Part shown: in pieces, positions 3,248 through 19,569 of the stretch
How the letters are laid out: each line of letters opens with the position of its first letter
Position numbering within the stretch: position 1 is the stretch's first letter
Assembly (NCBI GenBank): GCA_036278995.1
Contig: DASUJZ010000101.1
Coordinates: 57,631-81,630, forward strand
From: Terriglobia bacterium
Lineage (GTDB): Bacteria; Acidobacteriota; Terriglobia; UBA7540
Length of the DNA stretch: 24,000 bases
Direction: 5' to 3'
Made by a program: the position numbers and the translations under genes
Notes under the pieces: model-generated
The model's input: the letters and a program-made list of their open reading frames with translations, nothing else
The model's database searches: none
What the model was told of the DNA's origin: nothing

Positions 3248-3351
3248 TCCTTTCCGGGGCATGCCGCTCCGGCCGCGTGTGAGCGTGCCCTGGCTCTGCG
3301 TAATCACGATGAGAGGTCCGGCTGCTGCAGATTAGCGCTCGGATGTAATTG

Positions 3352-5190
3352 ATGCCTCAATACGAAGTAGAGCACGACACACTGAACTCCAACAAGCCTC
3401 GGCAAACAGCTTCTACGCCCGCGCGGAACGCCATCCCGTGGATTTTGATCCTCATCGTCTGGATGTCGGTTTATTTGCAGGGCGCATTCCGTCCTTCTCT
3501 GCTGGACGACGCCGATTCCACACACGCCGAAGCGGCGCGTGAGATGTACGAATCGAGAGATTACGTTACGCTGCACGTGAACGGCATCCGGTATCTTGAA
3601 AAGGCTCCTTTGCCCTACTGGCTGGTGGCGTTTGGATTCTCCGCTTTTGGAGTTTCGGAGTTTGCGGTGCGCCTGCCGATCATACTTTCCATCCTGCTTA
3701 TGATTGGCCTGGGGGCGCTGTGGGGATTGCGGGCGTTCGGCAGGCGCGGGGGAATCTATGCCGGGCTGTTTGTAGCAACATGTATCGGCTGCTTCCTGTT
3801 CACGCGAATCTTTATCCCTGACGTTATTCTCAGCCTGCTGATTGCCCTGTCGCTCTATTTCTTCCTTTCGGCGCTCCAGTCAAGTCGGCAGCGTGAGTGG
3901 CGATGGTATGCTGCGTACGCCCTCATCGCCCTTGCTGTGCTCACAAAGGGCCTGGTGGCAGCGGTGTTTATCGTCATTCCTGCTATCGGATACCTGGCGC
4001 TGACGGGCGAGTGGCGGCGCTGGCGGGAACTGCGACTGGGCAAAGGAATTCTCATCTTCATTTTGGTGTGTGCTCCGTGGCACATCCTGGCAGGCGTCCG
4101 CAATCACGGATTCTTCTGGTTCTATTTCGTCAACGAGCAGTTCCTGCGCTTTTTGGGAGAACGCTACCCACACGACTACAATAAACTGCCGCCCGTCCTC
4201 TACTGGGGCCTGCATCTGGTCTGGCTGTTTCCCTGGAGCCTCTATTTTCCGCTGATCTTCCGCGACCTTAAGAGGGACATCGCGGCGGCGCGAAATCCAT
4301 CGGCGCTTAACTTCGCAATCCGTACGCGGGCGCTCTGCTGGGTCTGGGCAGGCGTCGTGCTGGTTTTCTTTTCATTTTCGACCAACCAGGAATACTATAC
4401 CTTTCCCGCTTATCTTCCCCTGCTGCTGCTAATCGCCGGGAGCCTGGCGCGCGATGAAAAACAGAAACGTTCAAGCCGATGGACGGTTGTCGGCAACGGG
4501 CTTTATGCTGCCGCAGGCCTGGCCGCGGGCGCTGTGCTGGTGGCCGCGCTGTGGGCTTCAAGAAACGTGCCGCCCGCCGCCGATCTAGGCGAATTGCTGG
4601 TCCATCGCGAGGTTGCCAATAACACGCTATCGATGTCAAAATTTTTCGATCTCACCACTTCGGCTTTTGCGGCGCTGCGCCTGCCGGCGGGACTGGCCGC
4701 CGCCGCGCTACTTATCGGACCGCTCGCGGCCCTTCTTCTGCGCCTCCGCAGGAAGCACCTGGCCGCCACCTGGGCCACGGGCCTTGCCACCGCGGTTTTC
4801 CTGATTGCGGCTCAACTCGCGTTTGTCCGGTTCGGGCCGTTTCTCTCTTCGAGCCGTCTGGCCGATGCGATCCGGAGCCGTGAAAAGCCGGGGGATATGG
4901 TGATGATCTATGGCGACCAGGCTTACGGGTCATCGCTGCTGTTCTACTTAAAGAGGCCGATTGATCTGGTGAATGGGCGGACGACTTCAATGTGGTTTGG
5001 CTCGACATTTCCTGACGCGCCGCACATCTTTTTGGATGATGGTGAGCTTGCCCGCGACTGGGGCGGCGAGCATAGGATATTTCTATTCGTTCCTCCAGGG
5101 CAGCTCGACACGGTAAATCAAGTTCTGCCCCAGCCTCGATATGTTGTCGCTGAAAGCTCCGGGAAAATTGTCTACAGCAACCAGCGGTGA
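3352..5190 (+). CDS. GT-C fold membrane glycosyltransferase, ArnT/PMT-like (GT39/GT83-type, polyprenyl-phosphate-sugar dependent)
   Basis: Track ORF 3349..5190 (TTG), with ATG at 3352. It is a polytopic protein with at least 10 hydrophobic segments. The first loop, LLDDADSTHAEAAREMYESRDYVTLHVNGIRYLEKAPLPYWLVA, matches the acidic-motif / 'KxPLxYW' N-terminal signature of ArnT/PMT_2 family enzymes. There is a soluble C-terminal domain of about 120 aa (MVMIYGDQAYGSSLLFYLKRPIDLVNG...). Donor and acceptor cannot be read from the sequence. Confidence 0.75.
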   Translation: MPQYEVEHDTLNSNKPRQTASTPARNAIPWILILIVWMSVYLQGAFRPSLLDDADSTHAEAAREMYESRDYVTLHVNGIRYLEKAPLPYWLVAFGFSAFGVSEFAVRLPIILSILLMIGLGALWGLRAFGRRGGIYAGLFVATCIGCFLFTRIFIPDVILSLLIALSLYFFLSALQSSRQREWRWYAAYALIALAVLTKGLVAAVFIVIPAIGYLALTGEWRRWRELRLGKGILIFILVCAPWHILAGVRNHGFFWFYFVNEQFLRFLGERYPHDYNKLPPVLYWGLHLVWLFPWSLYFPLIFRDLKRDIAAARNPSALNFAIRTRALCWVWAGVVLVFFSFSTNQEYYTFPAYLPLLLLIAGSLARDEKQKRSSRWTVVGNGLYAAAGLAAGAVLVAALWASRNVPPAADLGELLVHREVANNTLSMSKFFDLTTSAFAALRLPAGLAAAALLIGPLAALLLRLRRKHLAATWATGLATAVFLIAAQLAFVRFGPFLSSSRLADAIRSREKPGDMVMIYGDQAYGSSLLFYLKRPIDLVNGRTTSMWFGSTFPDAPHIFLDDGELARDWGGEHRIFLFVPPGQLDTVNQVLPQPRYVVAESSGKIVYSNQR

Positions 5191-5196
5191 TCGCTG

Positions 5197-6411
5197 CTAC
5201 ACGGGACAACCTGCGTCGCTGGAATCCGTCGCGCCTGGACGGTTTTGAGGGACCATCCGCCCGCCAGCAACGAGCCGATAGCGCTCTCCGCGCCAGTCAA
5301 TCTCTGAACCCCAAAAGCTCCCGCACCACAGGATGAATCCAAGAAGGTCGCGAAGCGGATAGAGCCAGCAGTAGAGCGCGGAGTCGCGGTCGCGATTGAC
5401 GCCCCATCCAACCACCAGCGCCTGGACCACGCGGTTGACAAATGCAATAGCTAGCAAGCCCAGCCCGAGCACCCAATTGCCGGACATCCATCCGGCAGCC
5501 AGGGCGAGCACGCCAAACGGCATAGCAAACGTCAGGCCCGTTCCAATATGGCCCAGACTTCGCGAAAATCGCGAGCTCTTCATCCAGCGAAGCTGGTGGA
5601 GCATGGAAGCCCGCGCAGAGCGGTTCAGAACGATGTGGTTAATCACATGGTGCGACAGCACCACCTTGCTGCCGGCTGCATGGGTTAAGGCGCCCATGAC
5701 GAAATCGTCGGCACAGTAATCCCGCAAAACCCCAAAGCCGCCCCACCCCTCCAGCACGTCTTTCCGGATGACCATTGTGGGGCCAAGCGCGAACTTCATC
5801 CCTTCCAGTAGATTAGCCACGAGCACGCCGGAAGCTAATTCGATCGACATGCCGAGCGCTTCGAGAAGCGACCAGAAGCCCCCGGTCGAAACTCCGCGAT
5901 AGAGACAAGTAACCATGCCGACCTCCGGATCAAGCATGGGCTTTACCACTTGTGCGAGGTAATCCGGTGCGACGCGCACGTCGCTGTCGGTGATGAACAG
6001 CGTCGAATGGTTGGCCAGCGGCACCATCTTCTCCATCAGGCATACCTTGGCGTTCGGGTAGCCCGGATGGCCAGAGAGAACGGTCTGAGTTGAAACGTGC
6101 GCGTACTTCTTACTGAGGGATTCGACGATGGCGAGCGCCGGGTCTGACCGAACCCGCGCGCCAAAGATAAGTTCGTAATCCGGATAATCCTGGCGGAAAA
6201 AGCTTTCCAGACATTCTTCGAGCAAGGGCTCGGTGCCGTGCAAGGCCTTCAAAACGCTCACCGGCGGCAGGGCTGCCTTCCCCTCTGTTGGAACCGAGTA
6301 AAGCTGGGCCGAAATCCGAAAGCGCACAGAAGCGACCACCACCAGAACAAGGTAAATGCTGGCAGCGGACAGCCCGACACCGGCGATGATGAATAGAACG
6401 TGTTCAATCAT
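5197..6411 (-). CDS. hpnI: HpnI-type (GT21 / ceramide-glucosyltransferase-like) hopanoid glycosyltransferase, paralog A
   Basis: Track ORF 5197..6420 (GTG); ATG at 6411 gives MIEHVLFIIAGVGLS... It has an N-terminal TM segment. Motifs present: PPVSVLKALHGTEPLLEECLESFFRQDYPDYELIFG, the DxD-like ITDSDVRVAPDYL, CADDF, the QxxRW motif (HQLRWMKSSR), and C-terminal TM segments. This is the GT21 architecture shared by HpnI (BHT N-acetylglucosaminyltransferase). The 'LHG.EP...L.SF..QDYP' block looks closest to the canonical HpnI I remember. The symbol is tentative because a second paralog sits next door. Confidence 0.65.
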   Translation of the reverse strand: MIEHVLFIIAGVGLSAASIYLVLVVVASVRFRISAQLYSVPTEGKAALPPVSVLKALHGTEPLLEECLESFFRQDYPDYELIFGARVRSDPALAIVESLSKKYAHVSTQTVLSGHPGYPNAKVCLMEKMVPLANHSTLFITDSDVRVAPDYLAQVVKPMLDPEVGMVTCLYRGVSTGGFWSLLEALGMSIELASGVLVANLLEGMKFALGPTMVIRKDVLEGWGGFGVLRDYCADDFVMGALTHAAGSKVVLSHHVINHIVLNRSARASMLHQLRWMKSSRFSRSLGHIGTGLTFAMPFGVLALAAGWMSGNWVLGLGLLAIAFVNRVVQALVVGWGVNRDRDSALYCWLYPLRDLLGFILWCGSFWGSEIDWRGERYRLVAGGRMVPQNRPGATDSSDAGCPV

Positions 6412-6513
6412 GCGCCACACAACGACAATGCGCCTGAAATATCATAAGGCAAGGAGTGTAAATCGAGCCAAGATACCAGGAATGGTCGCGCTGTAAGGCA
6501 GGAAACGCAGCGC

Positions 6514-7674
6514 TTAGTGTTTACTGGGCGCAGGACTCAGCCGGCCCTTGCGGATATAGAACGCGTTGCCGCGCCACTCGATGCGCCGTTTGGAAAAGCT
6601 GGCGGCCAGGATGAAGAATGCGAGCGCATCCCAGACAGGCACCAGCCACCATTTCCTGCTCAGCAGTGGATCTTTCAGGCCCCACACGCCCACAGTCCAG
6701 GCGACAGCCATCCGAAGCATCAGGTACGCTGACCAAAATCCCGCTGTTGCCTCCCATGTGTGGTGCACCAGGGTGGCCGCAATGATCCACGGCAGCGCCT
6801 GGGTAAGCAGCCTGCCCAATTGGCCCCACGGCCGCGAATTGGTTACTCCAACGGCCCAGCGAAGCTGGTGTCTGATTGCGTCGAACAGCCCTTGCGATGG
6901 AGAAATGCTTGCAACTGTGTAAGGGATCAACTCGACTTCGTGACCCACATCAGCGATCCGGCGCCCCAGTTCAAAATCATCGGAAAAGCAATCCGCAATG
7001 GCCTCGAATCCGCCCAGTTCTTCGAGGCGCTCGGCGGTTACGGCGATGCTTGCGCCCAGCGCAAATTTCACGCCTTCCAACTGCCGGGCCACGACCACGC
7101 CGGCCATAAAGTCGGAAGTGAGGCCGACGGCCTCGATCTCAGAAGGCAGTTTGGGTTCCGGCTGCATGCGGTACATGCAGGTGACAGCGCCGACGTTCGG
7201 GTTCCGAAACGGGTTGACAATGGCCCGCAGATAATCGGGTTCAACCCGAATGTCGCTGTCACTCAGCACCAGGACCGGGTAGCGGGCTTCGTGCGACAGC
7301 CGGCACAATTGGCGCACCTTGCGGTTCCAGCCCTTCCACGGAGAACCAACAAAGAGGCGGATGGCCCGGCTGGGGTAATCCTCGATGAGCCTCCGGATGA
7401 CAGGGATAACGGGGTCATCGACGTCCATCACTCCGAAGAGTATTTCGTATTCGGGGTAATCGAGATTGCAGAAGCTGGCGAAGTTCTCGTAGCATTCGCG
7501 GTCCATCCCCTTGACAGGTTTCAGGATGCTGACCGGCGGGCAGAAGTCAGGATGGCGATCGACAGGACGGCGGAAATACCTCCAGGCGCTGAAGAGCGCG
7601 GCCAGATAGTAAAGCAGTGAAACGATAGCGCCAACTGAAACAACCCATTCCACCAGGTGAAAGTGCGCATGCAT
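6514..7674 (-). CDS. HpnI-like GT21-family glycosyltransferase, paralog B
   Basis: 386 aa, ATG at 7674. It has an N-terminal TM segment, then PPVSILKPVKGMDRECYENFASFCNLDYPEYEILFG, LSDSDIRVEPDYL, FSDDFELGRRIA, QLRWAVGVTNSR, and C-terminal TM segments. It aligns by eye along its whole length with paralog A, with roughly one third of residues identical. Confidence 0.7.
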   Translation of the reverse strand: MHAHFHLVEWVVSVGAIVSLLYYLAALFSAWRYFRRPVDRHPDFCPPVSILKPVKGMDRECYENFASFCNLDYPEYEILFGVMDVDDPVIPVIRRLIEDYPSRAIRLFVGSPWKGWNRKVRQLCRLSHEARYPVLVLSDSDIRVEPDYLRAIVNPFRNPNVGAVTCMYRMQPEPKLPSEIEAVGLTSDFMAGVVVARQLEGVKFALGASIAVTAERLEELGGFEAIADCFSDDFELGRRIADVGHEVELIPYTVASISPSQGLFDAIRHQLRWAVGVTNSRPWGQLGRLLTQALPWIIAATLVHHTWEATAGFWSAYLMLRMAVAWTVGVWGLKDPLLSRKWWLVPVWDALAFFILAASFSKRRIEWRGNAFYIRKGRLSPAPSKH

Positions 7675-7692
7675 TGCCTTCGTCCTATGTTT

Positions 7693-8064
7693 TCAGATGC
7701 AAACCAGAGCTACTCCGATACAGACGATGATGACGCCGGTCCACCTCTCCCGGTTTACATACTCGCCCAGTAGAAATTTAGCGCCCAGAGCGCCAACCGC
7801 GTAACTCGCAGCCGTAGCTGGAACCACCAGGCTCACGTTGGCCCACGAAAGAAGCGCCAGCAGCGAAAAAAACGCCACGGCCATCAGGCCCATTCCGATC
7901 CACAGCCACTTCACTCTGAGAGCCCGGCCGAGAAACCGCAACACGCTGAGCGGGGTGAAGCTCTTGACGTCGCCAACGGTTTTCATGGCGAGAGAAAGGG
8001 AAATATCGCCCATCTGTCCCGCCACCACAATAATCGCGATAAATAGGGCTGTGCGACCCGTCAT
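7693..8064 (-). CDS. Half-size (4-TM) EamA/DMT-superfamily membrane protein, subunit 2 of a putative heterodimer
   Basis: 123 aa with four hydrophobic segments. The C-terminal block LSWANVSLVVPATAASYAVGALGAKFLLGEYVNRERWTGVIIVCIGVALV is EamA-like. Its ATG (8064) overlaps the stop of the upstream paralog (ATGA on the minus strand, 8061-8064). Confidence 0.7.
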   Translation of the reverse strand: MTGRTALFIAIIVVAGQMGDISLSLAMKTVGDVKSFTPLSVLRFLGRALRVKWLWIGMGLMAVAFFSLLALLSWANVSLVVPATAASYAVGALGAKFLLGEYVNRERWTGVIIVCIGVALVCI

Positions 8065-8477
8065 GAATTATGACTTGTGCTGGGGTGCGTCCTGCCAACC
8101 ACGAAAACGCCTACGCAGATCAGGCCAACGCCGATCCAACGTGTGGGCGGGACATGCTCTCCCAGAAAGAAGTATCCCATCAGGGCCACCAAAACATAGC
8201 CAATCGCCGAGGCAGGCGAAACGTAGCTGAAGTCCGCCCAGGAAAGCACAAGCATGTAGCTCACCAGGAAGAGCATCAGGAGGGCAATAGCCAACCAGAT
8301 GGTCCCACTGCCAAACGCTCTGGCAAAAAAAGCGATTGCGCTCCCCAGAAACCAGTGCTGGGGTTCACCCAGCCGTTTCATACCCCGGCTCAGCAGGACA
8401 TCACCCGATGACCCAAAGGTGACCATAAACGCCAGCAGGATGAGGGTCTTGCCTCGCTGGCTTTTCAATTCAGACAT
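8061..8477 (-). CDS. Half-size (4-TM) EamA/DMT-superfamily membrane protein, subunit 1 of a putative heterodimer
   Basis: 138 aa with four hydrophobic segments. The EamA-like end is LSWADFSYVSPASAIGYVLVALMGYFFLGEHVPPTRWIGVGLICVGVFVV. It starts 20 nt after the hpnJ stop. Size, topology and pairing resemble ArnE/ArnF-type small DMT pairs. Confidence 0.7.
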   Translation of the reverse strand: MSELKSQRGKTLILLAFMVTFGSSGDVLLSRGMKRLGEPQHWFLGSAIAFFARAFGSGTIWLAIALLMLFLVSYMLVLSWADFSYVSPASAIGYVLVALMGYFFLGEHVPPTRWIGVGLICVGVFVVGRTHPSTSHNS

Positions 8478-8497
8478 GAGCTTTCATAGCCCAAAAA

Positions 8498-10006
8498 TCA
8501 AGTGTTCGATGGAGGTTCGGAGGCCAGATCGATCGCTGGCACGCTGATGGAGGTTGTTTTAAAGGGGCCATTGCGGGCAAAGTTGAGCCGCTCGCTTCGC
8601 AACCGGAGAAACTCGACGCCTTCATGGTACAGGCGCTTCCGCTCATCTTTGTCCCACAGCGCCTTGCGCACGATTCGCCACACCACGCGTGGCCTGAAGT
8701 AATACTCATCATAAAAACGGTTGACGGCGTCCATCATCTGCGCGGTGGTCAGGCCCGGATACTGGATGTGCGGCAATTGGTGGCCGCTGGTGTCGGACAT
8801 GGGAAGACTCACCAGGTGGCCGGCTTGCAACAACTGGTTGTACATCTCCGTCCCCGGGTAGCCGTGCGCGAGGGAAACCTGGATGGTTTCCGAGTCGAGT
8901 TCCCTGGCAAAATCGATGGTGCGCTGAATGGTTTCCGGGGTCTCACCCGGCAATCCGATGATGAAGTCAGCGTGGATTGCGATGCCGAGCTTCTTACAGT
9001 TTTTCGCAAACCTGCGGCCCATTTCCGCCGTTGCGCCCTTCTTGATGTTCTTCAGGATCTGGTCATCACCGGATTCGAAGCCCACAATTAAGAGGCGGGC
9101 GCCTCCGTCAGCCATGGCTTTCAGCGTCTCGTAGTCGCTGTGGACGCGGGCCGTGCAGGACCACCTGAAGCCCAACGGCTTGAACTTCTTTGAAAGTTCG
9201 ATGACACGGTCTTTGCGGATATTGAAAGTATCGTCATCGAAGAAAAACTCCTTTGCCTGCGGGAATAGCTTAAGCGCCTGCCGGATTTCCGTCGCGACGT
9301 TATCTACCGAACGTGTGCGCCACGCGTGGCCGGAAAGGGTCTGCGGCCACAGACAGAAGGTGCAAAGGGCGGGACAGCCGCGTGAAGAATAGAAAGAGAC
9401 GAAGGGATGAAGCAGAAACGGAACGTTGTAATTCTCAATGGTCAGGTTGCGCTTGTAAACCTCTGTGGCGAACGGCAGGCGGTCCAGGTCTTCGGTCTGC
9501 AGTTCCTTTCGCGGCGGGTTGTGGATGATTTTTCCATCCTTGCGATAACTCGCACCGGGAATTTCGCTGAGCGGCTTACCCTGCGCAAACTCCACTACTG
9601 CATAATCAAATTCGCCGCGCACAATAAAATCGATATCGTCGCTGGCCATTAAACTCTGATCGGGCTTCACCTGCACCGGCGGCCCCACAAAAGCTATCTG
9701 AAGGCTCGGCTTCGCCTCTTTCATCCGGCGGGCAAGCTCGAGGTCGTTCTCGAAACCGACAGCGGACGTGAAAAGGACGACGAATTCATAGTCCCTGGCG
9801 ATTTCGACGGTCTGCTGAGGAGTGACTTTGTGCGGAGGAGCATCGAGCAGGCGGCTGCCGGGCAGCATTCCCGCGGGATAGGTGAGCCAGACGGGATACC
9901 AATACGACTCAATCTCGCGTGTTGCGGGCCACCTCGAACTTGCGCCCCCATCAAACTTCTCGAAACTCGGAGGATTCAGCAACAGCGTCTTCAAAACAGA
10001 CACCAT
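8498..10006 (-). CDS. hpnJ: Hopanoid-associated B12-binding radical SAM protein HpnJ (cyclitol-ether forming enzyme family)
   Basis: 502 aa. The N-terminus LKTLLLNPPSFEKFDGGASSRWPATREIESYWYPVWLTYPAGML matches the HpnJ-family N-terminus as I remember it (..APSF.GFDGGAGSRYQA.REI.SFWYPTWLA). The radical SAM CxxxCxxC motif is present (SSRGCPALCTFCLWP), preceded by a B12-binding-like Rossmann segment. AAGGGAG lies just upstream of the ATG (revcomp of 10009-10015). It is adjacent to HpnI-type GTs and faces the shc operon. Confidence 0.75.
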   Translation of the reverse strand: MVSVLKTLLLNPPSFEKFDGGASSRWPATREIESYWYPVWLTYPAGMLPGSRLLDAPPHKVTPQQTVEIARDYEFVVLFTSAVGFENDLELARRMKEAKPSLQIAFVGPPVQVKPDQSLMASDDIDFIVRGEFDYAVVEFAQGKPLSEIPGASYRKDGKIIHNPPRKELQTEDLDRLPFATEVYKRNLTIENYNVPFLLHPFVSFYSSRGCPALCTFCLWPQTLSGHAWRTRSVDNVATEIRQALKLFPQAKEFFFDDDTFNIRKDRVIELSKKFKPLGFRWSCTARVHSDYETLKAMADGGARLLIVGFESGDDQILKNIKKGATAEMGRRFAKNCKKLGIAIHADFIIGLPGETPETIQRTIDFARELDSETIQVSLAHGYPGTEMYNQLLQAGHLVSLPMSDTSGHQLPHIQYPGLTTAQMMDAVNRFYDEYYFRPRVVWRIVRKALWDKDERKRLYHEGVEFLRLRSERLNFARNGPFKTTSISVPAIDLASEPPSNT

Positions 10007-10215
10007 ACAGACTCCCTTCTATTGCATCCCGATGCTACGAGGCTGTCTAACTCCCACCACGCATTGTACCCGAAAGGCTATAACTTCTTTTGAATTTACT
10101 TTGCTGTAAAACGGGGTCCTATCCGCAAACGTCCCGCCTACGATTCTAACGCCTTGCACCGAAACTGGCTACCCACTTGTGACGCGCCACCGATTTCAGC
10201 CATCCGCCTGTATGG

Positions 10216-11214
10216 CTAATTCGCACCCAGGCGCTTGAGAGCGTCGCGGGCCGCCTGATTGTCAGGGCTCAGCCGGAGAGCCGACCGGTATTGCTCGATC
10301 GCCTGCTCCTTCCGCCCCCACATTTCATAGATGCGCCCCAGCCAGTCATGCGCCGCCGCGTGCGGCGGAAAATCGTCGCGCCGCGGAGTTCCGGCCAGGT
10401 ACGCCTTCAGGTCCTGCTCCGCCCCTTCGAGGTCACTGCGCTTCATAACGCTGGCCACGGCGCTGTAGTAATTCACGCGCGGATCTTTGGGTACGATCGA
10501 AGCCACCGCCCGGACAGCGGCATCCACTTGCGCCGGCTTCTGATCAGCCTCGTAAAAGTCCGCAATCTGAAAGTAGGCATCAGCCTGCTGCGGTCGCGCT
10601 TTCAGGACCTTTCCATACTCCTTATCGGCCAAGTCCGGCCTGTTCAAGTCACGCCAATAGATGCCGCGCGCGAGATTGCCTTCTGTGGCGTCACGGGAAG
10701 CAATGGCTTGCACCTGGTCCTCGGCTTTATCCCTGCTCCCACCCAGTATCCACGGAGCCTGAAGATAGAACTCCATTAAATCGCGCCGGGCGGCAAGGTT
10801 GTCGGGATCCAGATGGATGGCTCTCTGATATTCCACCTTTGCCTTTCGGGCAAGCCAGAAGCTACGATCCGTATCGGCTTTCATGCCGTAAGAGCGCGCC
10901 AACCAGAAGTGCGATTCTGAGCAGTCGGGAGACAAATTAACGGCGCGTTCGCCGAAGGCCACTGCCTTGTCATAATTGCCCAGATCCAGGAAGGAACGCG
11001 CCAGCCACAGCGTGGCTTGGGCATCCTTGGGATTGTTTGCCACGTGTCGCTGGAGAACCAAGGCCGCCTCGGCATACTTCCCCGCGTCCAGGTCATTAGC
11101 AATTGCCGGGCGAGCGGGGCAGGGGCTGGTCGAGGAGTGACCTGAAGCCCATCCGCGCGCAAGCGCGCAAATACAGAGCAACGCCGCAAAAATTTTTATT
11201 TTCAAAGAATGCAT
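10216..11214 (-). CDS. Secreted/lipoprotein-like tetratricopeptide (TPR) repeat protein
   Basis: 332 aa. It has a signal peptide MHSLKIKIFAALLCICALARG. Repeated TPR-like units follow (AQATLWLARSFLDLGNYDKAVAFGERAVNLSPD; HFWLARSYG...YQRAIHLDPDN; AHDWLGRIYEMWGRKEQAIEQYRSALRLSPDN). Function unknown. Confidence 0.7.
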   Translation of the reverse strand: MHSLKIKIFAALLCICALARGWASGHSSTSPCPARPAIANDLDAGKYAEAALVLQRHVANNPKDAQATLWLARSFLDLGNYDKAVAFGERAVNLSPDCSESHFWLARSYGMKADTDRSFWLARKAKVEYQRAIHLDPDNLAARRDLMEFYLQAPWILGGSRDKAEDQVQAIASRDATEGNLARGIYWRDLNRPDLADKEYGKVLKARPQQADAYFQIADFYEADQKPAQVDAAVRAVASIVPKDPRVNYYSAVASVMKRSDLEGAEQDLKAYLAGTPRRDDFPPHAAAHDWLGRIYEMWGRKEQAIEQYRSALRLSPDNQAARDALKRLGAN

Positions 11215-11524
11215 AGTTAAAGGGTCGGCCGGTTTGGGCTAGGAAGTAACCTGAGGTAGGCCTCCGTTGTGGGAACAATCCATAATCGGGTTATTGTACC
11301 AAAAGTCTCGGCAAGATGTATAGACAGTAAATGCACGACAATCGAACCCCCTCGGAAATTTGATGCATCGTTTTATCAAACGGCTACATCAATCAATCTG
11401 GAGGTTAGATGCGCCGGGCGGCCAGGAAAGCAGTACCGAACCTCTGCTTATCTTGACGGTGCGGAAAGACCATGAGAGGATTATCTTTAGAGGGTATGTA
11501 GCAGGAAAGGATGATGTCAAAACA

Positions 11525-12493
11525 ATGAACGTGGCTCCTCACGTTGAGAACTCTGTCCGCGCTGAACCAAGAACTTTGATGCTGTTACGACCCAGGGGCT
11601 TTTGCGCGGGTGTGATCCGCGCGATTGACGTTGTCCGCATGGTTCTCGACAAACTGGGACCTCCCGTTTATGTGCGCCGGGAGATTGTTCACAACCGCTA
11701 CGTTGTGGACGAACTGGCCGGCCAGGGCGCCATATTCGTTGAAAATCTGGAAGAGGTGCCGACAGGAGCAGCGGTTATTTTCAGCGCGCATGGAGTCTCC
11801 CCTGCAGTGCGCGAAGAAGCGCGCGCCCGGCAGCTCCGCATCATTGACGCCACCTGCCCGCTGGTGACCAAGGTCCATCTGGAGGTGATCCGGTACGCCC
11901 GCGAAAAATACACCATTGTCCTTATTGGCCATCGCGACCACGATGAAATGATCGGCACGCTGGGGGAAGCCCCCGAGTCCATCCAGTTGATTTGCTCGGT
12001 GGAAGACGTGGAGGCGCTGGACCCACCCGATCCCAACCGGATTGTGTATTTGACGCAGACCACATTGAGTCTGGATGATACCGCGGAAATCGTCGAGCGG
12101 CTCAAATACCGATTTCCTGCCATTATCGGGCCGCCGGGACAGGATATATGCTACGCCACACAGAACCGGCAGATGGCCGTCAAGGCCATTGCCCCCAAGG
12201 CTGATGGAATCCTCGTGGTGGGAGCCCAGAATAGTTCCAATTCGAACCGGCTGGTGGAAGTTGCCCGGCGGGGAGGGACGATGGCCTACTTGATCGGCAA
12301 CGCTGACGACATCCTTCCGGAATGGGTGAGCGGCCAGCGACGTATCGGTGTCACCGCAGGCGCGTCCACGCCGGAAGTGCTGGTTCGGCAGGTCGTCGAC
12401 CGGCTGAAGGAATGGGGCTTTACGCGAGTAGAGGAAGTAGAGTGGATCGAAGAAGACGTCCGGTTTGCCCTGCCTGCGGAATTGAAGGTCTAA
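11525..12493 (+). CDS. ispH: 4-hydroxy-3-methylbut-2-enyl diphosphate reductase (IspH/LytB)
   Basis: The three conserved Cys contexts are present: PRGFCAGVIRAI, IDATCPLVTKVH and DICYATQNRQ. The SSNSNRL and VTAGASTPE blocks are also present. The track ORF starts at 11360, but its first 55 codons fall in a lower-GC, non-homologous stretch. ATG 11525 (MNVAPH...) or ATG 11579 (MLLRPRGFCAGV, which matches the E. coli-type N-terminus) are the realistic starts. Confidence 0.9.
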   Translation: MNVAPHVENSVRAEPRTLMLLRPRGFCAGVIRAIDVVRMVLDKLGPPVYVRREIVHNRYVVDELAGQGAIFVENLEEVPTGAAVIFSAHGVSPAVREEARARQLRIIDATCPLVTKVHLEVIRYAREKYTIVLIGHRDHDEMIGTLGEAPESIQLICSVEDVEALDPPDPNRIVYLTQTTLSLDDTAEIVERLKYRFPAIIGPPGQDICYATQNRQMAVKAIAPKADGILVVGAQNSSNSNRLVEVARRGGTMAYLIGNADDILPEWVSGQRRIGVTAGASTPEVLVRQVVDRLKEWGFTRVEEVEWIEEDVRFALPAELKV

Positions 12494-14558: not shown

Positions 14559-15607
14559 TGAGATTTCCGCTCAGTTTGACGGCAAATCTGAGTACCTACA
14601 TAGCTGGAAAGAGACTTCATCGCGTTGATAAATTTCCTTTGGTCATGATGCTGGAACCGCTGCATGCCTGCAATCTAACCTGCACGGGATGTGGACGCAT
14701 TCGAGAATACAAAGATACCATCCGCGACAAGCTGACCGTCGAGCAGTGCCTCAACGCAGTGGATGAGTGCGGCGCACCTGTCGTTTCCATTTGCGGCGGC
14801 GAGCCGATGATCTATCCTGACCTGCCGCGCCTGGTGAGTGAGATCCTGGACCGCAAAAAAAACATCTACCTGTGCACCAACGGGATGTTCATTCGAAAGC
14901 GTCTTCAGGATTACAAGCCCACCTCACGGATGTTCTTCAACATCCATCTGGACGGCATGGAGGCTACTCACGACCTCTGCGTGGAACGCAAAGGGGTCTT
15001 CCGCGAGGCCGTCGCGGCCATCAAGTTCGCCAAAGACCGCGGCTTCCAGGTGTGTACCAACACAACTATTTACAAGCAGACTGACCTGAACGAGATCGCA
15101 GAGCTGTTCGAATTCCTGCGGGGCCTCGGTGTGGACGGGCACATGCTTTCACCGGCCTATTCCTATCTTGCTGTCCAGACCAAAGAAATCTTCATGTCTC
15201 GCCAGGAAATTCATGCCAAGTTTCGCGAGGCCAGCCGGCTGTTGGAAAAATATTGCGTGATGACTTCGCCAATCTATCTGGAATATCTACGCGGCGAGCG
15301 CGAACTGGAATGTACGGCCTGGGGCAATCCTACTTACAATCCGCGCGGCTGGAAGGGGCCGTGCTACCTGATCACTGACGGGCATTACGCCACCTTCAAG
15401 GAGTTTATGGAATCCACGCCCTGGGAAAACTACGGCCCAGGGAAGGATCCTCGATGCGAACACTGTATGGTCCACGTGGGCTTTGAACCTTCCGCGGTGC
15501 TGGGCGCCAACCGCAACTTCCCCGATACCTGGAAACTCCTCAGATGGCAGCTTACAAAACCGAAGGGCGGACACAACAGCAACAGTGCCCTTTACGCGAA
15601 TGGATGA
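14558..15607 (+). CDS. hpnH: Adenosylhopane synthase, radical SAM protein HpnH
   Basis: The N-terminus MRFPLSLTANLSTYIAGKRL...FPLVMMLEPLHACNLTCTGCGRIREY carries CxxxCxxC, and the C-terminal Cys-rich region is CYLITDGHY...DPRCEHCMVHVGFEP. ATG 14558 overlaps the shc stop (TGATG) and is preceded by GGGAGGA (14547-14553). The track start TTG 14555 is one codon longer. Confidence 0.9.
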   Translation: MRFPLSLTANLSTYIAGKRLHRVDKFPLVMMLEPLHACNLTCTGCGRIREYKDTIRDKLTVEQCLNAVDECGAPVVSICGGEPMIYPDLPRLVSEILDRKKNIYLCTNGMFIRKRLQDYKPTSRMFFNIHLDGMEATHDLCVERKGVFREAVAAIKFAKDRGFQVCTNTTIYKQTDLNEIAELFEFLRGLGVDGHMLSPAYSYLAVQTKEIFMSRQEIHAKFREASRLLEKYCVMTSPIYLEYLRGERELECTAWGNPTYNPRGWKGPCYLITDGHYATFKEFMESTPWENYGPGKDPRCEHCMVHVGFEPSAVLGANRNFPDTWKLLRWQLTKPKGGHNSNSALYANG

Positions 15608-16656
15608 CCGGGATGACTTCTCTTGTAACAGGGGCAAGCGGATTTGTGGGCAGCCACGTAGCGCGGATGCTGGCTGATCGTGGCGATCAGGTCCGCGTTC
15701 TGGTGCGGCCGCAAAGCAGCCTTTTCGCGCTTGAAGGAGTACCGGTAGAAACGGTCTTCGGCGACCTGCGAGATGCCAGCTCGCTGGGCGCTGCTGTCGA
15801 AGGCGTCGATCGAGTCTTTCATGTTGCAGCCGATTATCGGCTGGGCGCTACCCGTCCTCAGGAAATCTACGATTCCAACGTAACCGGCACGCGAAATCTG
15901 CTGGAAACAGCAGGCAGGGAGAAGGTTCAGCGAATTATCGTTACGAGCAGCATCGCCACCATTGCGGTGGACCGCGGCTTGACCTTGCCGAACGAGGCAA
16001 CTGAGGCGCGCGTCGAGGAGATGATTGGTCATTACAAGCGCTCAAAATTCCTCGCCGAGAAGGAAGCGCTGAAGGCGGCACGCGAAGGCATGCCGGTGGT
16101 GATTGTCAACCCCACCACTCCGGTCGGTCCGGGTGACTGGAAGCCGACGCCGACTGGACGCATTATCGTGGACTTTCTAAACGGCAGGATTCCGGCATAC
16201 GTGGAAACCGGTCTCAACTGGGTACCGGTTGAAGATGTTGCGGTTGGGCACTGGCTGGCCGCGGAGCGCGGGCGCGTCGGCGAGCGGTACATCCTCGGCG
16301 GCCGCAACATGCTGCTGAAAGAAGTTCTCGACATCCTGGCGCGAATCAGCGGACGCACCAGCCCTCGCCTTCGCCTGCCGCATTCTGTCGCCATGGCAGC
16401 AGGTTACGCTGACCACATCTTTTCACGCATCGTTAACCGTCCGCCACGAATCCCGCTGGAGGGGGTTCGGATGGCCCGGCACAAGATGTTCGTGGACTGC
16501 TCAAAAGCTTCCGCCGAGCTTGGTTTCAAGGCTGGCCCGGTGGAGGCCGCACTGGAAAGGGCAGTCGCTTGGTACCTACAGCGCGGTTACGCCAACAATA
16601 ACCATCCTGCGACAAGCTTCGAACGGGCGGCATTAGCAAGCCGTGAACGGAAATGA
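15604..16656 (+). CDS. hpnA: Hopanoid-associated NAD(P)-dependent sugar epimerase/reductase (extended SDR) HpnA
   Basis: Rossmann motif LVTGASGFVGSHVARML, followed by GDLRD..SL, VFHVAADYRL and YKRSKFLAE (YxxxK). ATG 15604 overlaps the hpnH stop (ATGA, 15604-15607); ATG 15613 is an alternative. The track ORF from 15544 would overlap hpnH by 64 nt and adds no homologous sequence. Confidence 0.8.
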   Translation: MTGMTSLVTGASGFVGSHVARMLADRGDQVRVLVRPQSSLFALEGVPVETVFGDLRDASSLGAAVEGVDRVFHVAADYRLGATRPQEIYDSNVTGTRNLLETAGREKVQRIIVTSSIATIAVDRGLTLPNEATEARVEEMIGHYKRSKFLAEKEALKAAREGMPVVIVNPTTPVGPGDWKPTPTGRIIVDFLNGRIPAYVETGLNWVPVEDVAVGHWLAAERGRVGERYILGGRNMLLKEVLDILARISGRTSPRLRLPHSVAMAAGYADHIFSRIVNRPPRIPLEGVRMARHKMFVDCSKASAELGFKAGPVEAALERAVAWYLQRGYANNNHPATSFERAALASRERK

Positions 16657-17408
16657 AAATTCTAGCGACATTTGCGGTGGAGTGGGAATTTAAACCCTGG
16701 CGTCGCCTGGGAAAATTTCAACCAACTCGCGGCAACGGTCGGGTCTTTTTTGCACAAGCGGCCGGGAATGAGATCACGGTCGTCCTCACCGGAATCGGAG
16801 CGGCGAACGCGGCGCGGGCCATCAGAAGTTTGGTCGATTACCAGCCGGACATCTGTATCGCGTCGGGACTGGCAGGCGGACTGAAACCCAAACACCGCTC
16901 GGGAGAAATTCTGGCTGCAAGGAGAGTCCGAGCAGAAAGCGCCAGAATCTCATACGAAAGTGCCGAGGCTCTTTTCAGCGCTGCCGTTGAGTGCGGAGCA
17001 AAACCGGTGGACCAATTTATTTCCAGCGGGCATGTGATTCGTACGGCGCAGGAGAAATTCTGCCTCGGAGTTGCAGCGGACGCAGTTGAGATGGAAACTT
17101 GTGCCGTGATGAAGGAAATGCATGCGCTGGGCGTGCCCTGCGTCGCCGTCCGAGCCATCGCCGATCCCGCGGGCATGGACATACCTTGCGACTTTGACCG
17201 CGCTATGGATGACTCGGGACACATCCGGATTGTCCAGGTCTTGAGTCAGGTTGCTGGTGATCCGCGACGAGTCTGGCCGCTCGCGCAGTTGGGCTTGAGA
17301 AGTACGCGCGCCGCCACAGCGCTTGCCCGATACCTTGAGGGTTTCACAACCTGGTTGGCCGGACATATAGAGATAACGGACCTGAGCGTCCAAACAATCA
17401 GCCAATGA
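16653..17408 (+). CDS. hpnG: Hopanoid-associated nucleosidase/phosphorylase HpnG (adenosylhopane to ribosylhopane)
   Basis: 251 aa with PNP_UDP_1-like blocks: VVLTGIGAANAARA, IASGLAGGL, DAVEMETCAV, VAVRAIADPA. Its ATG overlaps the hpnA stop (ATGA, 16653-16656). The position after hpnH/hpnA fits the hpn cluster context. Confidence 0.75.
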   Translation: MKILATFAVEWEFKPWRRLGKFQPTRGNGRVFFAQAAGNEITVVLTGIGAANAARAIRSLVDYQPDICIASGLAGGLKPKHRSGEILAARRVRAESARISYESAEALFSAAVECGAKPVDQFISSGHVIRTAQEKFCLGVAADAVEMETCAVMKEMHALGVPCVAVRAIADPAGMDIPCDFDRAMDDSGHIRIVQVLSQVAGDPRRVWPLAQLGLRSTRAATALARYLEGFTTWLAGHIEITDLSVQTISQ

Positions 17409-18511
17409 CAACCACCAGAACAGAAGCCGGAGCAGCGTCGGGGGTCCAGCAGCAGACCAAGCGGATGTGGGCTGGAGTCTACCGCGGACAGGGTCGGGTG
17501 GTTACTGAGGAGGTTCCCCTGCCGGAGATTGGGGCCGGCGAGGTGCTGGTGCGAGTCCGCGCCTGTGGCATTTGCGGGACTGATATTAAGAAGATCAAGC
17601 ACGGATTTCTGCCTCCGCCGCAGATATTCGGTCACGAAATTGCCGGAACGGTCGAGGCTGTTGGCGACGGGGTGCGCCAGTGGCGGCCCGGCGACCGCGT
17701 GCTGACCTTCCATCACATCCCCTGCGGCGATTGCTTCTATTGCGCTCGGAAGCTCTATTCACAGTGCCCCACCTACAAGAAGGTGGGAGTCACCAGCGGC
17801 TTCCGCCCCAGTGGCGGTGGCTTTGCGGAATACGTCCGTGTCATGGATTGGATCGCCGAACGCGGGATGATCCGGATCCCGCCGGAGGTCAGCTTTGAGC
17901 AAGCCTCCTTTGTCGAGCCGGTCAACACGTGCCTGAAGGCCGTCTACAAGGCACGAATCGAGGCGCGCGATACTGTTCTGGTAGTGGGCCAGGGGCCTAT
18001 CGGCATGCTGCTGATGATGTTGGCCCGCATCTGCGGCGGGAGCAGAGTGATGACGAGCGATCCGATGCCCGCGCGCTGCCGGAAGAGCGTGGAACTCGGA
18101 GCTGAGGAGGCCTTTGATCCTGCGGGCGTGGACCTGGTTGAAGCCATTCGCGCTCGGACTTCCGGCCGTGGTGCGGATGTCGTGCTGGTTGCCGCGCCCC
18201 AGCGTGAACTCCTGGAGCAGGCGCTGACGCTTACCCGTCCCGGAGGCCGTGTCCTGCTTTTTGCATATAACGATCCGCTGCTGCGCGTTGAATTCCCTGC
18301 CGCCACAGTGGGTATCGACGAAAAGGAAATTCTCGGCAGTTATAGCGCTTCATACGATCTGCAGCAAGAATCCGCCCGGTTGATTTTTGAACGCGTCCTT
18401 CCGGTGGAGAAGTTAATTTCTCACCGGCTCCCACTTTCTGAAATCGAGCAGGCTATACATCTGGCAGCTCATCCTACTGAGGAGTCTCTTAAAATCATAG
18501 TGGTGCCTTAA
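17405..18511 (+). CDS. Zinc-dependent medium-chain dehydrogenase/reductase (polyol/threonine-dehydrogenase-like), NAD(H)-type fingerprint
   Basis: 368 aa. Catalytic zinc ligands are in ACGICGTD, FGHEIAG and FVEPVNTC. The structural zinc motif is CGDCFYCARKLYSQC (CxxCxxCx7C). The Rossmann motif is VVGQGPIGM, followed by RVMTSD (an acidic residue at the end of beta-2). ATG 17405 overlaps the hpnG stop (ATGA). ATG 17465 (MWAGVYRG...) is an alternative start. Confidence 0.8.
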   Translation: MTTTRTEAGAASGVQQQTKRMWAGVYRGQGRVVTEEVPLPEIGAGEVLVRVRACGICGTDIKKIKHGFLPPPQIFGHEIAGTVEAVGDGVRQWRPGDRVLTFHHIPCGDCFYCARKLYSQCPTYKKVGVTSGFRPSGGGFAEYVRVMDWIAERGMIRIPPEVSFEQASFVEPVNTCLKAVYKARIEARDTVLVVGQGPIGMLLMMLARICGGSRVMTSDPMPARCRKSVELGAEEAFDPAGVDLVEAIRARTSGRGADVVLVAAPQRELLEQALTLTRPGGRVLLFAYNDPLLRVEFPAATVGIDEKEILGSYSASYDLQQESARLIFERVLPVEKLISHRLPLSEIEQAIHLAAHPTEESLKIIVVP

Positions 18512-19569
18512 TGGAAACTGATCTCAACGGCGAGATGAACGCCGCGGTGTTGTACGGTCGCGAAGACCTGAAAATTGAACGAATTCCGATACCAACCTTC
18601 ACTCCTGACGAAGTCCTGGTGCGGGTGAAGGTGGCCCTGACATGCGGAACCGACCTGAAAGTCTGGCGGCAAGGTTATCACGCCAGGATGATTGTGCCTC
18701 CGGCCGTTTTTGGACATGAACTCTCCGGAATTGTGGAAGCGGTTGGAAGCGATGTGGATAACGGGCTAAAGCCCGGCGCCTGGGTGGTGCCTGCGAATTC
18801 TGCCCCCTGCAATAAATGCATCTTCTGCCGCAAGGGCCAGTCGAACCTGTGCAATTCGCTTCTGTTTAACAATGGCGCCTACGCTGAGTACATCCGGATT
18901 CCAGGCCGAATCGTCCGTGAGAATACTCTCGAAATTCCTCCCCATGTTCCCTTTCGAGACGCCGCTTTGGTGGAACCGCTTGCCTGCATCCTGCGCGGCA
19001 TTGAAGAAACAGGGATTCAAGCCGGCGATACCACAGTTATTGTGGGATGCGGGCCCATCGGGCTGAAGTTCATCCGAGTTCTGTCCGTCCGCGGCGTGAG
19101 GGTGATCGCCCTCGGCAAGAGGAAGAGCCAGACTCGTACTGCGGAACAACTGGGTGCCTATGCCGCATTTGACGTTTCACGGATGGACAACCCCGTTTCT
19201 GCGGTGCGCCAGCTTACCGAAGGAGGCCTTGGCGCCGACTCGGTAATTGAGGCAGTGGGAATCCCACAGACCTGGCAATGGGCCGTGCAGATGGTGCGGC
19301 GCGGCGGCACGGTCAACCTGTTCGGAGGGTGCCCGCGCGGCAGCCAGGTGCAATTTGACCCGTCGCTGCTTCACTACTCAGAAATCACCATACGGTCGAC
19401 CTTTCATCACACTCCGCAATTCGTTCGCAAGGCCCTCGATGCCGTGGCAAAAGGGGAAATCCGAGCCTCAGACTTTGTGACGGGCGACATCCCGCTGGAT
19501 GAATTGCCTGATTTCTTCCAAAAAATGAAGCACCGGAATGGCGAATTAAAGATGGCGGTCATCCCGTGA
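18511..19569 (+). CDS. Zinc-dependent medium-chain dehydrogenase/reductase (polyol-dehydrogenase-like), NADP(H)-type fingerprint
   Basis: 352 aa. Zinc and Rossmann motifs present: ALTCGTD, FGHELSG, LVEPLAC, CNKCIFCRKGQSNLC and IVGCGPIGL. The Rossmann motif is followed by RVIALGKRKS, which has no acidic residue and a basic cluster. Its ATG overlaps the stop of the upstream dehydrogenase (TAATG, 18509-18513). Confidence 0.8.
   Translation: METDLNGEMNAAVLYGREDLKIERIPIPTFTPDEVLVRVKVALTCGTDLKVWRQGYHARMIVPPAVFGHELSGIVEAVGSDVDNGLKPGAWVVPANSAPCNKCIFCRKGQSNLCNSLLFNNGAYAEYIRIPGRIVRENTLEIPPHVPFRDAALVEPLACILRGIEETGIQAGDTTVIVGCGPIGLKFIRVLSVRGVRVIALGKRKSQTRTAEQLGAYAAFDVSRMDNPVSAVRQLTEGGLGADSVIEAVGIPQTWQWAVQMVRRGGTVNLFGGCPRGSQVQFDPSLLHYSEITIRSTFHHTPQFVRKALDAVAKGEIRASDFVTGDIPLDELPDFFQKMKHRNGELKMAVIP

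Follow-up and report, generated by a model that had tools for sequence, protein, structure and literature searches.

ArnE/ArnF (PmrL/PmrM) is the undecaprenyl-phosphate-alpha-L-Ara4N flippase of E. coli and is thought to be heterodimeric. Its subunits are proteins of about 110-130 amino acids with four transmembrane (TM) segments, members of the drug/metabolite transporter (DMT)/small multidrug resistance (SMR) superfamily, and their adjacent genes overlap within a lipid-glycosylation operon. For hopanoids, the known or proposed transport factors HpnN, HpnM, HpnS, and HpnT were worked out in Proteobacteria and act after the inner membrane has been crossed; we know of no protein assigned to moving polar-headed hopanoids across that membrane. 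The composite bacteriohopanepolyols serve as geochemical biomarkers. Here we describe a pair of overlapping genes, B and A, in a 24,000-nucleotide stretch of a Terriglobia (Acidobacteriota) metagenome-assembled genome (assembly GCA_036278995.1, contig DASUJZ010000101.1, positions 57,631 to 81,630), called the window below. The window is a hopanoid biosynthesis cluster, and the pair has the layout of arnE/arnF, two adjacent genes for 4-TM proteins. We suggest that the B and A proteins work together as a heterodimer, probably antiparallel, which flips or exports glycosylated bacteriohopanepolyols derived from the HpnI reaction, a reading whose chances we judge to be about even, and the pair is the best candidate yet for the inner-membrane crossing of sugar-decorated hopanoids.

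Work on Burkholderia cenocepacia has established that HpnI adds GlcNAc to bacteriohopanetetrol (BHT), that HpnK deacetylates the product, and that ring contraction by the radical-SAM enzyme HpnJ yields the cyclitol ether; the cofactors of all three enzymes are cytoplasmic, and the RND-type HpnN takes hopanoids to the outer membrane (PMC12583986, PMC5462960). The minus strand of the window carries, in order, a secreted TPR gene, hpnJ, B, A, hpnI, and a second HpnI-like GT21 gene (Table 1). This confirms the first-pass annotation, which had been made from the sequence and had placed hpnJ and two GT21-type transferases in one strand run, the last of them now scoring just under the model cutoff. 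The gaps are short, 20 nt from hpnJ to B and 18 nt from A to hpnI. The plus-strand letters tcat at 8061-8064 read ATGA on the coding strand, where the TGA stop of B overlaps the ATG start of A. A protein comparison gives 37% identity across 119 residues (E 8e-25), so that A and B are paralogues, and the description of two overlapping, paralogous 4-TM open reading frames (ORFs) of 138 and 123 amino acids holds in each of its parts. An NCBI entry named 'EamA family transporter [Terriglobia bacterium]' is 100% identical to the B protein, and source annotations call the pair proteins EamA or EmrE-like. A promoter and terminator scan of positions 5000-11500 gave counts at the chance level and is uninformative on operon boundaries.

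Relatives of the pair were found at 462 places in a scan of a one-genome-per-species collection, and the best 80 were fetched (loci L001-L080). Nearly all are labelled Acidobacteriota (Terriglobia, Acidiferrales, and Acidobacteriaceae), and they include the isolate Tunturiibacter gelidiferens. Gene order was scored by tblastn with the window proteins in windows of ±10 kb. B is followed by A in 80/80 loci. Both ORFs are real genes, because their homologues (49-89% identity) keep the same order in every fetched locus, and this conservation rules out chance ORFs. The gap between B and A is -10 to +6 nt in 80/81 loci, the window included, with start codons chosen heuristically. Thus, the coupling of two small 4-TM subunit genes that is known from arnE/arnF is present here, as seen from the ATGA, the 80/81 loci, and natural gene fusions. 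The gene directly upstream on the same strand is hpnJ in 60 of the 74 loci with enough upstream sequence, and hpnI is directly downstream in 55 of 69, so a neighbourhood survey for DMT pairs beside hpnI/hpnJ, as the first-pass annotation had proposed, finds strong conservation. Where at least 9 kb is available on each side, 37/39 loci have hpnJ or an hpnI-like gene. The hpnJ-B-A-hpnI core is kept even at about 50% identity in B and with different flanks: loci in the clade of the window have the shc cluster there, and those of Acidiferrales have an HlyD-TPR-MacB/FtsX-OEP (outer-membrane efflux protein) set, immediately upstream on the same strand. The only partner shared by almost every locus is a glycosyltransferase of the HpnI type.

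Two-domain fused relatives of 277-285 amino acids occur among distant representatives. Their first domain is more B-like and their second more A-like, which keeps the B-then-A order. By the Rosetta-stone argument, these fusions support the idea, already raised at first pass, that B and A would work as one unit or heterodimer. On a TARA ocean contig (L087), probably cyanobacterium-like to judge from domains such as SLH/OprB, DICT, and CHASE6_C, the fusion immediately precedes HpnI (312.5 bits), with HpnJ (791 bits) close by. A DegT/PseC-like sugar aminotransferase gene and a BlsE-like radical-SAM gene follow hpnI there (L087:12185-14518), which suggests different sugar chemistry on the hopanoid in that organism. 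HpnJ, the fusion, and a GT21 gene follow in order on one strand of L088. The separate genes are arranged as MFP-TPR-MacB-OEP-HpnJ-B-B'-A-HpnI in L089 (MFP, membrane fusion protein) and as HpnJ-B-A-HpnI in L090, and an HpnK homologue is directly upstream of B-A in L092 and L093. Extra B-like genes are also seen, with three consecutive small DMT genes in L089 (8414-8890) and a duplicated B in L042 (10001-10893), which suggests a variable subunit composition.

The proteins were placed by hidden Markov model (HMM) searches. The match of B to Pfam EamA (PF00892) reaches 31.1 bits (gathering threshold 28.2) and falls in the C-terminal block (residues 62-127). In A, the corresponding block gives 18.7 bits, below that threshold; of the EamA-like block noted earlier in each protein, only that of B is therefore above threshold. 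A also gives a sub-threshold match of 22 bits to the TMEM234 model. Each protein is a single 4-TM half, not one polypeptide of about 10 TM segments with two EamA repeats. The curated ArnE model NF011625 (cutoff 92 bits) was not reached (B 28.5, A 17.1 bits), the NCBIfam EmrE model was far off (18.9 bits vs a cutoff of 162), Pfam Multi_Drug_Res (SMR) gave no match for the pair proteins at E <= 0.01, and neither A nor B matched the HpnL model TIGR03476. Nor did the searches of A and B reach a curated subfamily of soluble-substrate exporters or a curated HMM naming the family of the pair; the check proposed at first pass thus yields weak EamA, ArnE, and EmrE matches only and no characterised exporter subfamily. 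In hhalign profile alignments the B family pairs with E. coli ArnE over TM2-TM4 (94.8% probability, 33% identity) and with EmrE over TM3-TM4 (91.5% probability), not over TM1, and there is no significant match to ArnF. A sequence search of solved structures gave marginal matches only (E >= 0.012), to the CMP-sialic acid transporter and EmrE. The AlphaFold2 model of B has helices at 2-36, 58-80, 86-105, and 111-128 and a short amphipathic helix at 44-56. Foldseek with this model, which is of moderate confidence (pLDDT 67.6), places EmrE chains at the top (TM-score 0.61-0.64 normalised to EmrE, probability 0.98-1.0), followed by Gdx and SLC35B1.

We conclude that the pair is a distinct family within the DMT/SMR superfamily, remotely similar to EamA, ArnE, and EmrE; of the characterised proteins, ArnE is the closest to it. 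When 1.84 billion representatives were searched with a profile, 3,997 relatives scored E <= 1e-3, of which 1,074 reached E <= 1e-10 and 62 reached E <= 1e-30. True ArnE/ArnF orthologues are ruled out by the failed ArnE threshold together with the lack of arn genes, and a GtrA-type flippase by the lack of a Pfam GtrA match. The earlier comparison with ArnE/ArnF stands for the paired 4-TM layout and the hhalign match, but the relationship is remote and misses the curated threshold. The pair resembles SMR proteins (EmrE, Gdx, and the paired SMR heterodimers) in its four-helix fold; possible further parallels are a conserved, membrane-embedded TM1 carboxylate and subunits that are probably antiparallel. 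It differs from EmrE in the extra amphipathic helix between TM1 and TM2, and from SMR proteins in a genomic context of lipid biosynthesis rather than stress or drug resistance. With the ten-TM DMT/EamA transporters (YddG, the SLC35 nucleotide-sugar transporters, and LicB) it shares the superfamily, the EamA C-terminal block, and the existence of two-domain fused relatives. However, the window proteins are separate 4-TM halves, the fusions are apparently 4+1+4 and not 5+5, and the known substrates of the ten-TM transporters are soluble.

Several positions are conserved across 81 aligned pairs. The G-[DE] motif in TM1 is invariant in A, with an acidic residue in 81/81 (E 64, D 17), and the corresponding position of B is D in 64 and N in 17. 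An S-W-A-D motif after TM2 of B and an E-x5-R-W loop before TM4 of both proteins are invariant or near-invariant. The TM1 position is Gln in ArnE and ArnF in a MAFFT alignment, in a part of low confidence, and we dropped the equation of the TM1 acid with Glu14 of EmrE because MAFFT with EmrE, ArnE, and ArnF placed TM1 unreliably. The positive-inside bias of A is strong (+7), with about 9 Lys/Arg (K/R) in loops 1 and 3 and about 2 elsewhere, and therefore loops 1 and 3 should be cytoplasmic and the short termini periplasmic. The two domains of the fusions have opposite K/R bias in 7/7 cases, and are connected by a K/R-rich stretch and, after it, a conserved hydrophobic segment of 13-21 residues that contains Pro. 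The opposite bias and the hydrophobic linker fit a 4+1+4 topology with antiparallel domains, and we think that the B and A subunits are probably antiparallel rather than parallel. The AlphaFold2 model of a natural fusion (pLDDT 77.6, pTM 0.76) is fairly confident except in the linker.

From the gene order and these features we infer transport, its direction, its substrate, and the orientation of the dimer, as follows. The starting point is established: HpnI glycosylates bacteriohopanetetrol and HpnJ, with HpnK where present, remodels the sugar, both at the cytoplasmic face. B/A would then bring the hopanoid with its polar head into the periplasmic leaflet or release it from the inner membrane, with the headgroup held at the conserved acidic residues of TM1 within the membrane while the hopanoid rings remain in the bilayer. 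The role of B/A would be analogous to that of ArnE/ArnF for undecaprenyl-phosphate-Ara4N, and a neighbouring MacB-type tripartite pump might, speculatively, carry out a subsequent extraction step. What would be new is a paired lipid-sugar flippase of the DMT/SMR type in a new family, in a new pathway, and for a new predicted class of substrate. A much fuller version can be drawn, in which the pair is the first dedicated triterpenoid-glycolipid flippase, a proton-coupled, antiparallel, SMR-like heterodimer whose TM1 carboxylates bind an amino-sugar or cyclitol headgroup and which feeds the HlyD-TPR-MacB-OEP pump in Acidobacteriota as an HpnN-independent route to the outer membrane, with HpnL as its non-homologous proteobacterial counterpart; taken as a whole, this version is rather unlikely. 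The pair is a concrete target for the inner-membrane step of hopanoid transport, and it adds a marker by which the producers of composite bacteriohopanepolyols among soil bacteria may be predicted.

A number of observations weigh against the hopanoid flippase. The case for transport and for the substrate is circumstantial, coming from the gene neighbourhood, and part of the synteny is shared ancestry because the 80 loci are mostly from one phylum. The orientation of unfused B is ambiguous, with a K/R bias near neutral (mean difference +1.5), and the fit of the fusion model to 10-TM DMT structures is poor (best Foldseek hits, TM-score 0.3-0.41). The hpnK gene is mostly not nearby in these Acidobacteriota, which bears on the product of HpnI/HpnJ and hence on the identity of the substrate. 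Loci L073 and L080 have neither hpnI nor hpnJ within 10 kb. A fused homologue on a plasmid of Gloeothece verrucosa PCC 7822 (L096, 9001-9843) sits among stress-type genes, and an orphan B on a plasmid of Acidisarcina polymorpha (L097, 8974-9390) sits beside recombinase genes or fragments with no A partner; no hopanoid genes are found within 9 kb of either. Finally, eight Acidobacteriaceae loci (L043, L050, L060, L062, L064, L076, L077, and L079) have no hpnJ nearby. Their pair is accompanied by an HpnI-like GT21 (297 bits in L043, just below the cutoff), an ArnT-like GT-C glycosyltransferase, and a UDP-sulfoquinovose-synthase-like enzyme (507 bits vs a cutoff of 575), and in L043 (3375-9731) also by an asparagine-synthase-like amidotransferase. 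This neighbourhood hints at a novel glycolipid, possibly a sulfo- or amino-sugar hopanoid, and the GT-C and sugar-nucleotide enzymes also fit a polyprenyl-phosphate-sugar flippase. A similar context is seen in L060, L079, L033, and L071. The first-pass phrase 'dedicated to hopanoids' is accordingly right about the conserved hpn linkage and too strong in view of L073, L080, the Gloeothece plasmid copy, and the Acidisarcina orphan. Its reading as a lipid-sugar flippase is partly supported: the computational checks came out in its favour, but the support is neighbourhood-based, and a second candidate, HpnL, had gone unmentioned.

HpnL came up in three proteobacterial hpnJ loci examined on plasmid or chromid records (L081-L083, from Paraburkholderia graminis, Mycetohabitans rhizoxinica, and Methylobacterium bullatum). 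All three have hpnI, hpnJ, and hpnK with a co-operonic HpnL (TIGR03476, 328-340 bits), and two of the three HpnL proteins also match the NCBI 'flippase-like domain' model TIGR00374. No homologue of the pair is present in these three hpnI/J/K loci, and HpnL homologues are absent from the window and, within 10 kb of the pair, from the 80 acidobacterial loci. We take as a lead that the pair and HpnL occupy the same operon niche in different phyla and are complementary in the loci examined (three proteobacterial loci, ±10 kb windows), and the pair suggests a testable function for the proteobacterial HpnL. Like the pair, HpnL is an integral membrane protein, encoded in the proteobacterial hpnI/hpnJ/hpnK operon. 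Unlike the pair, it is a single polypeptide of about 350 amino acids of an unrelated fold and family, with no sequence similarity to A or B; it is related to the membrane domain of MprF (lysyl-phosphatidylglycerol synthase) and to AglD. HpnL is also uncharacterised in function (10.1101/2025.07.29.667474; PMC12583986). HpnK is present in only 2/80 acidobacterial loci, which agrees with the report of hpnI and hpnJ but no hpnK in Acidobacteria of subdivisions 1 and 3 (Sinninghe Damste et al. 2017; PMC5462960).

The first-pass statement that no gene had been assigned to the flipping of hopanoids is upheld by full-text literature searches, which found no paper linking a DMT/EamA gene or pair to hopanoid transport. 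The latest survey of shc microsynteny, with few acidobacterial sequences by its own statement, proposes HpnL, HpnM, HpnS, and HpnT and lists 'EamA domain' at rank 130 of a supplementary table, unremarked (10.1101/2025.07.29.667474). An EamA-like transporter is also listed, uncommented, among the domains of a Leptospirillum ferriphilum hopanoid cluster (PMC12654047).

The main rival to the hopanoid flippase is a polyprenyl-phosphate-sugar flippase of the ArnE/ArnF or GtrA type serving a GT-C enzyme: a GT2 enzyme would make a lipid-linked sugar in the cytoplasm, the pair would flip it, and the GT-C would pass the sugar on to an acceptor in the periplasm, for example lipid A or a hopanoid. The position of ArnE as the closest characterised relative favours this scheme, as does an ArnT-like GT-C gene in the window and in 16/80 loci. 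Loci L060 and L079 have the order B-A-GT-C on one strand, like arnT-arnE-arnF, and in 12 Acidiferrales loci a GT2 resembling Dpm1/PpgS lies 3-5 kb upstream together with a protein of at least 7 TM segments. However, most loci have no GT-C within 10 kb (7 of the 39 with full flanks have one), and neither the pair nor the fusion has a GT-C nearby in L087-L090. In the window, no arnA/B/C/D gene and no polyprenyl-phosphate-sugar synthase of the ArnC/Dpm1 type was found; the sole arn-like gene is the distant ArnT-like GT-C, on the opposite strand. ArnE/ArnF has arnC/arnT and arnA/B/D as partners and a polyprenyl phosphate as substrate, whereas the recurrent partners of the pair are hpnI, hpnJ, and hpnK, and its predicted substrate is a triterpenoid glycolipid. 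On balance, we regard the polyprenyl-phosphate scheme as unlikely.

The Dpm1/PpgS-like synthase candidate of L018-L028 and similar loci (for example, L020:4780-5583 and L030:2143-3606) has 267 amino acids and weak matches of about 57 bits, and lies about 3-7 kb upstream on the opposite strand. Its neighbour, a protein of 487 residues predicted to have at least 7 TM segments, matches DUF6798 and may be a GT-C-like enzyme.

Less probable again is an ordinary proton-coupled SMR/DMT efflux pump that acts on a small soluble or amphiphilic compound, such as a cationic metabolite or toxin, and has been carried along with the hopanoid genes. Such a pump would agree with the EmrE-like fold, the weak EmrE and EamA matches and source annotations, the several homologues outside a hopanoid context, and the conserved acidic residue in TM1, which recalls proton-coupled SMR pumps. 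It leaves unexplained why the pair sits so tightly in the operon between hpnJ and hpnI even in distant lineages, and why it survives there as a fusion, and no curated exporter subfamily was reached; we consider it distinctly unlikely. Very improbable, finally, is a non-transporting role as a membrane accessory of HpnI/HpnJ, in which the pair would tether the soluble radical-SAM enzyme to the membrane or offer it the glycolipid headgroup: the pair genes do lie between both enzyme genes with gaps of 18-20 nt, and HpnJ, in which only B12-binding and radical-SAM domains were found, acts on a membrane lipid, but the Acidobacteriaceae pair stays with hpnI-like genes away from hpnJ, proteobacterial HpnJ functions without such a pair, and the fold and family of the pair are of the transporter type.

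The plus strand of the window carries ispH, shc, hpnH, hpnA, hpnG, and two Zn-dependent dehydrogenase genes (Table 1); neither hpnK nor hpnL was found in the window. The ArnT-like GT-C gene converges with the gene of the HpnI paralogue and the minus-strand run, and its product is a possible periplasmic partner of the pair. Its linkage is variable, since the close relatives L001-L003, L005, and L009 have the HpnI paralogue but no GT-C. The second HpnI-like GT21 itself is found in only part of the related loci.

Table 1. Positions in the window of the B/A pair and of the neighbouring genes discussed in the text.
Feature	Position	Strand	Description
ArnT-like GT-C membrane glycosyltransferase	3349-5190	+	PMT_2 74 bits; ArnT model 103 bits vs cutoff 567
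Second HpnI-like GT21	5197-6420	-	306.9 bits, just below the cutoff of 310; 93 nt downstream of hpnI
hpnI	6514-7674	-	TIGR03472, 332.8 bits vs cutoff 310; GT21 glycosyltransferase acting on bacteriohopanetetrol
Subunit A	7693-8064	-	123 aa, ATG start; 4-TM paralogue of B
Subunit B	8061-8477	-	138 aa, ATG start; divergent EamA/DMT half-size protein, 4 TM helices and a short amphipathic helix
hpnJ	8498-10006	-	TIGR03471, 718 bits vs cutoff 577.6; B12-binding radical-SAM enzyme, BHT cyclitol-ether formation
Secreted TPR protein	10216-11214	-	Upstream of hpnJ
ispH ORF	11360-12493	+	TTG start; about 65-70 residues precede the IspH domain
hpnA ORF	15544-16656	+	Overlaps the end of hpnH by 64 nt
First tandem Zn-dependent dehydrogenase	17405-18511	+	After hpnG
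Second tandem Zn-dependent dehydrogenase	18511-19569	+	After hpnG

Homologues of the secreted TPR protein in other Acidobacteriota loci are encoded between the HlyD-type and MacB-type pump genes, upstream of hpnJ. The complete tripartite-pump set comprises an adaptor of the HlyD type, a secreted TPR protein, a MacB/FtsX-type permease that has a periplasmic core domain, and a TolC-like OEP. It is found immediately upstream of hpnJ, in the same orientation, in L017-L041, L047, L048, L089, and similar loci. Its distance from the pair is about 1.5-7 kb (e.g., L089:1412-6365), and the window retains the TPR gene only. A MacB-type gene directly precedes the pair in L060 and L079, where the order is MacB/FtsX-B-A-GT-C. 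The pump set may be a hopanoid export route other than HpnN.

The best matches of the tandem dehydrogenases, both sub-threshold, are scyllo-inosose 3-dehydrogenase IolM and threonine dehydrogenase, and the first of the two genes is kept at the same position in the close relatives L002-L012. These enzymes could modify a cyclitol or polyol headgroup. The residues preceding the IspH domain and the overlap of the hpnA ORF with hpnH (Table 1) indicate that both ORF starts were probably called too far upstream in the mechanical ORF list.

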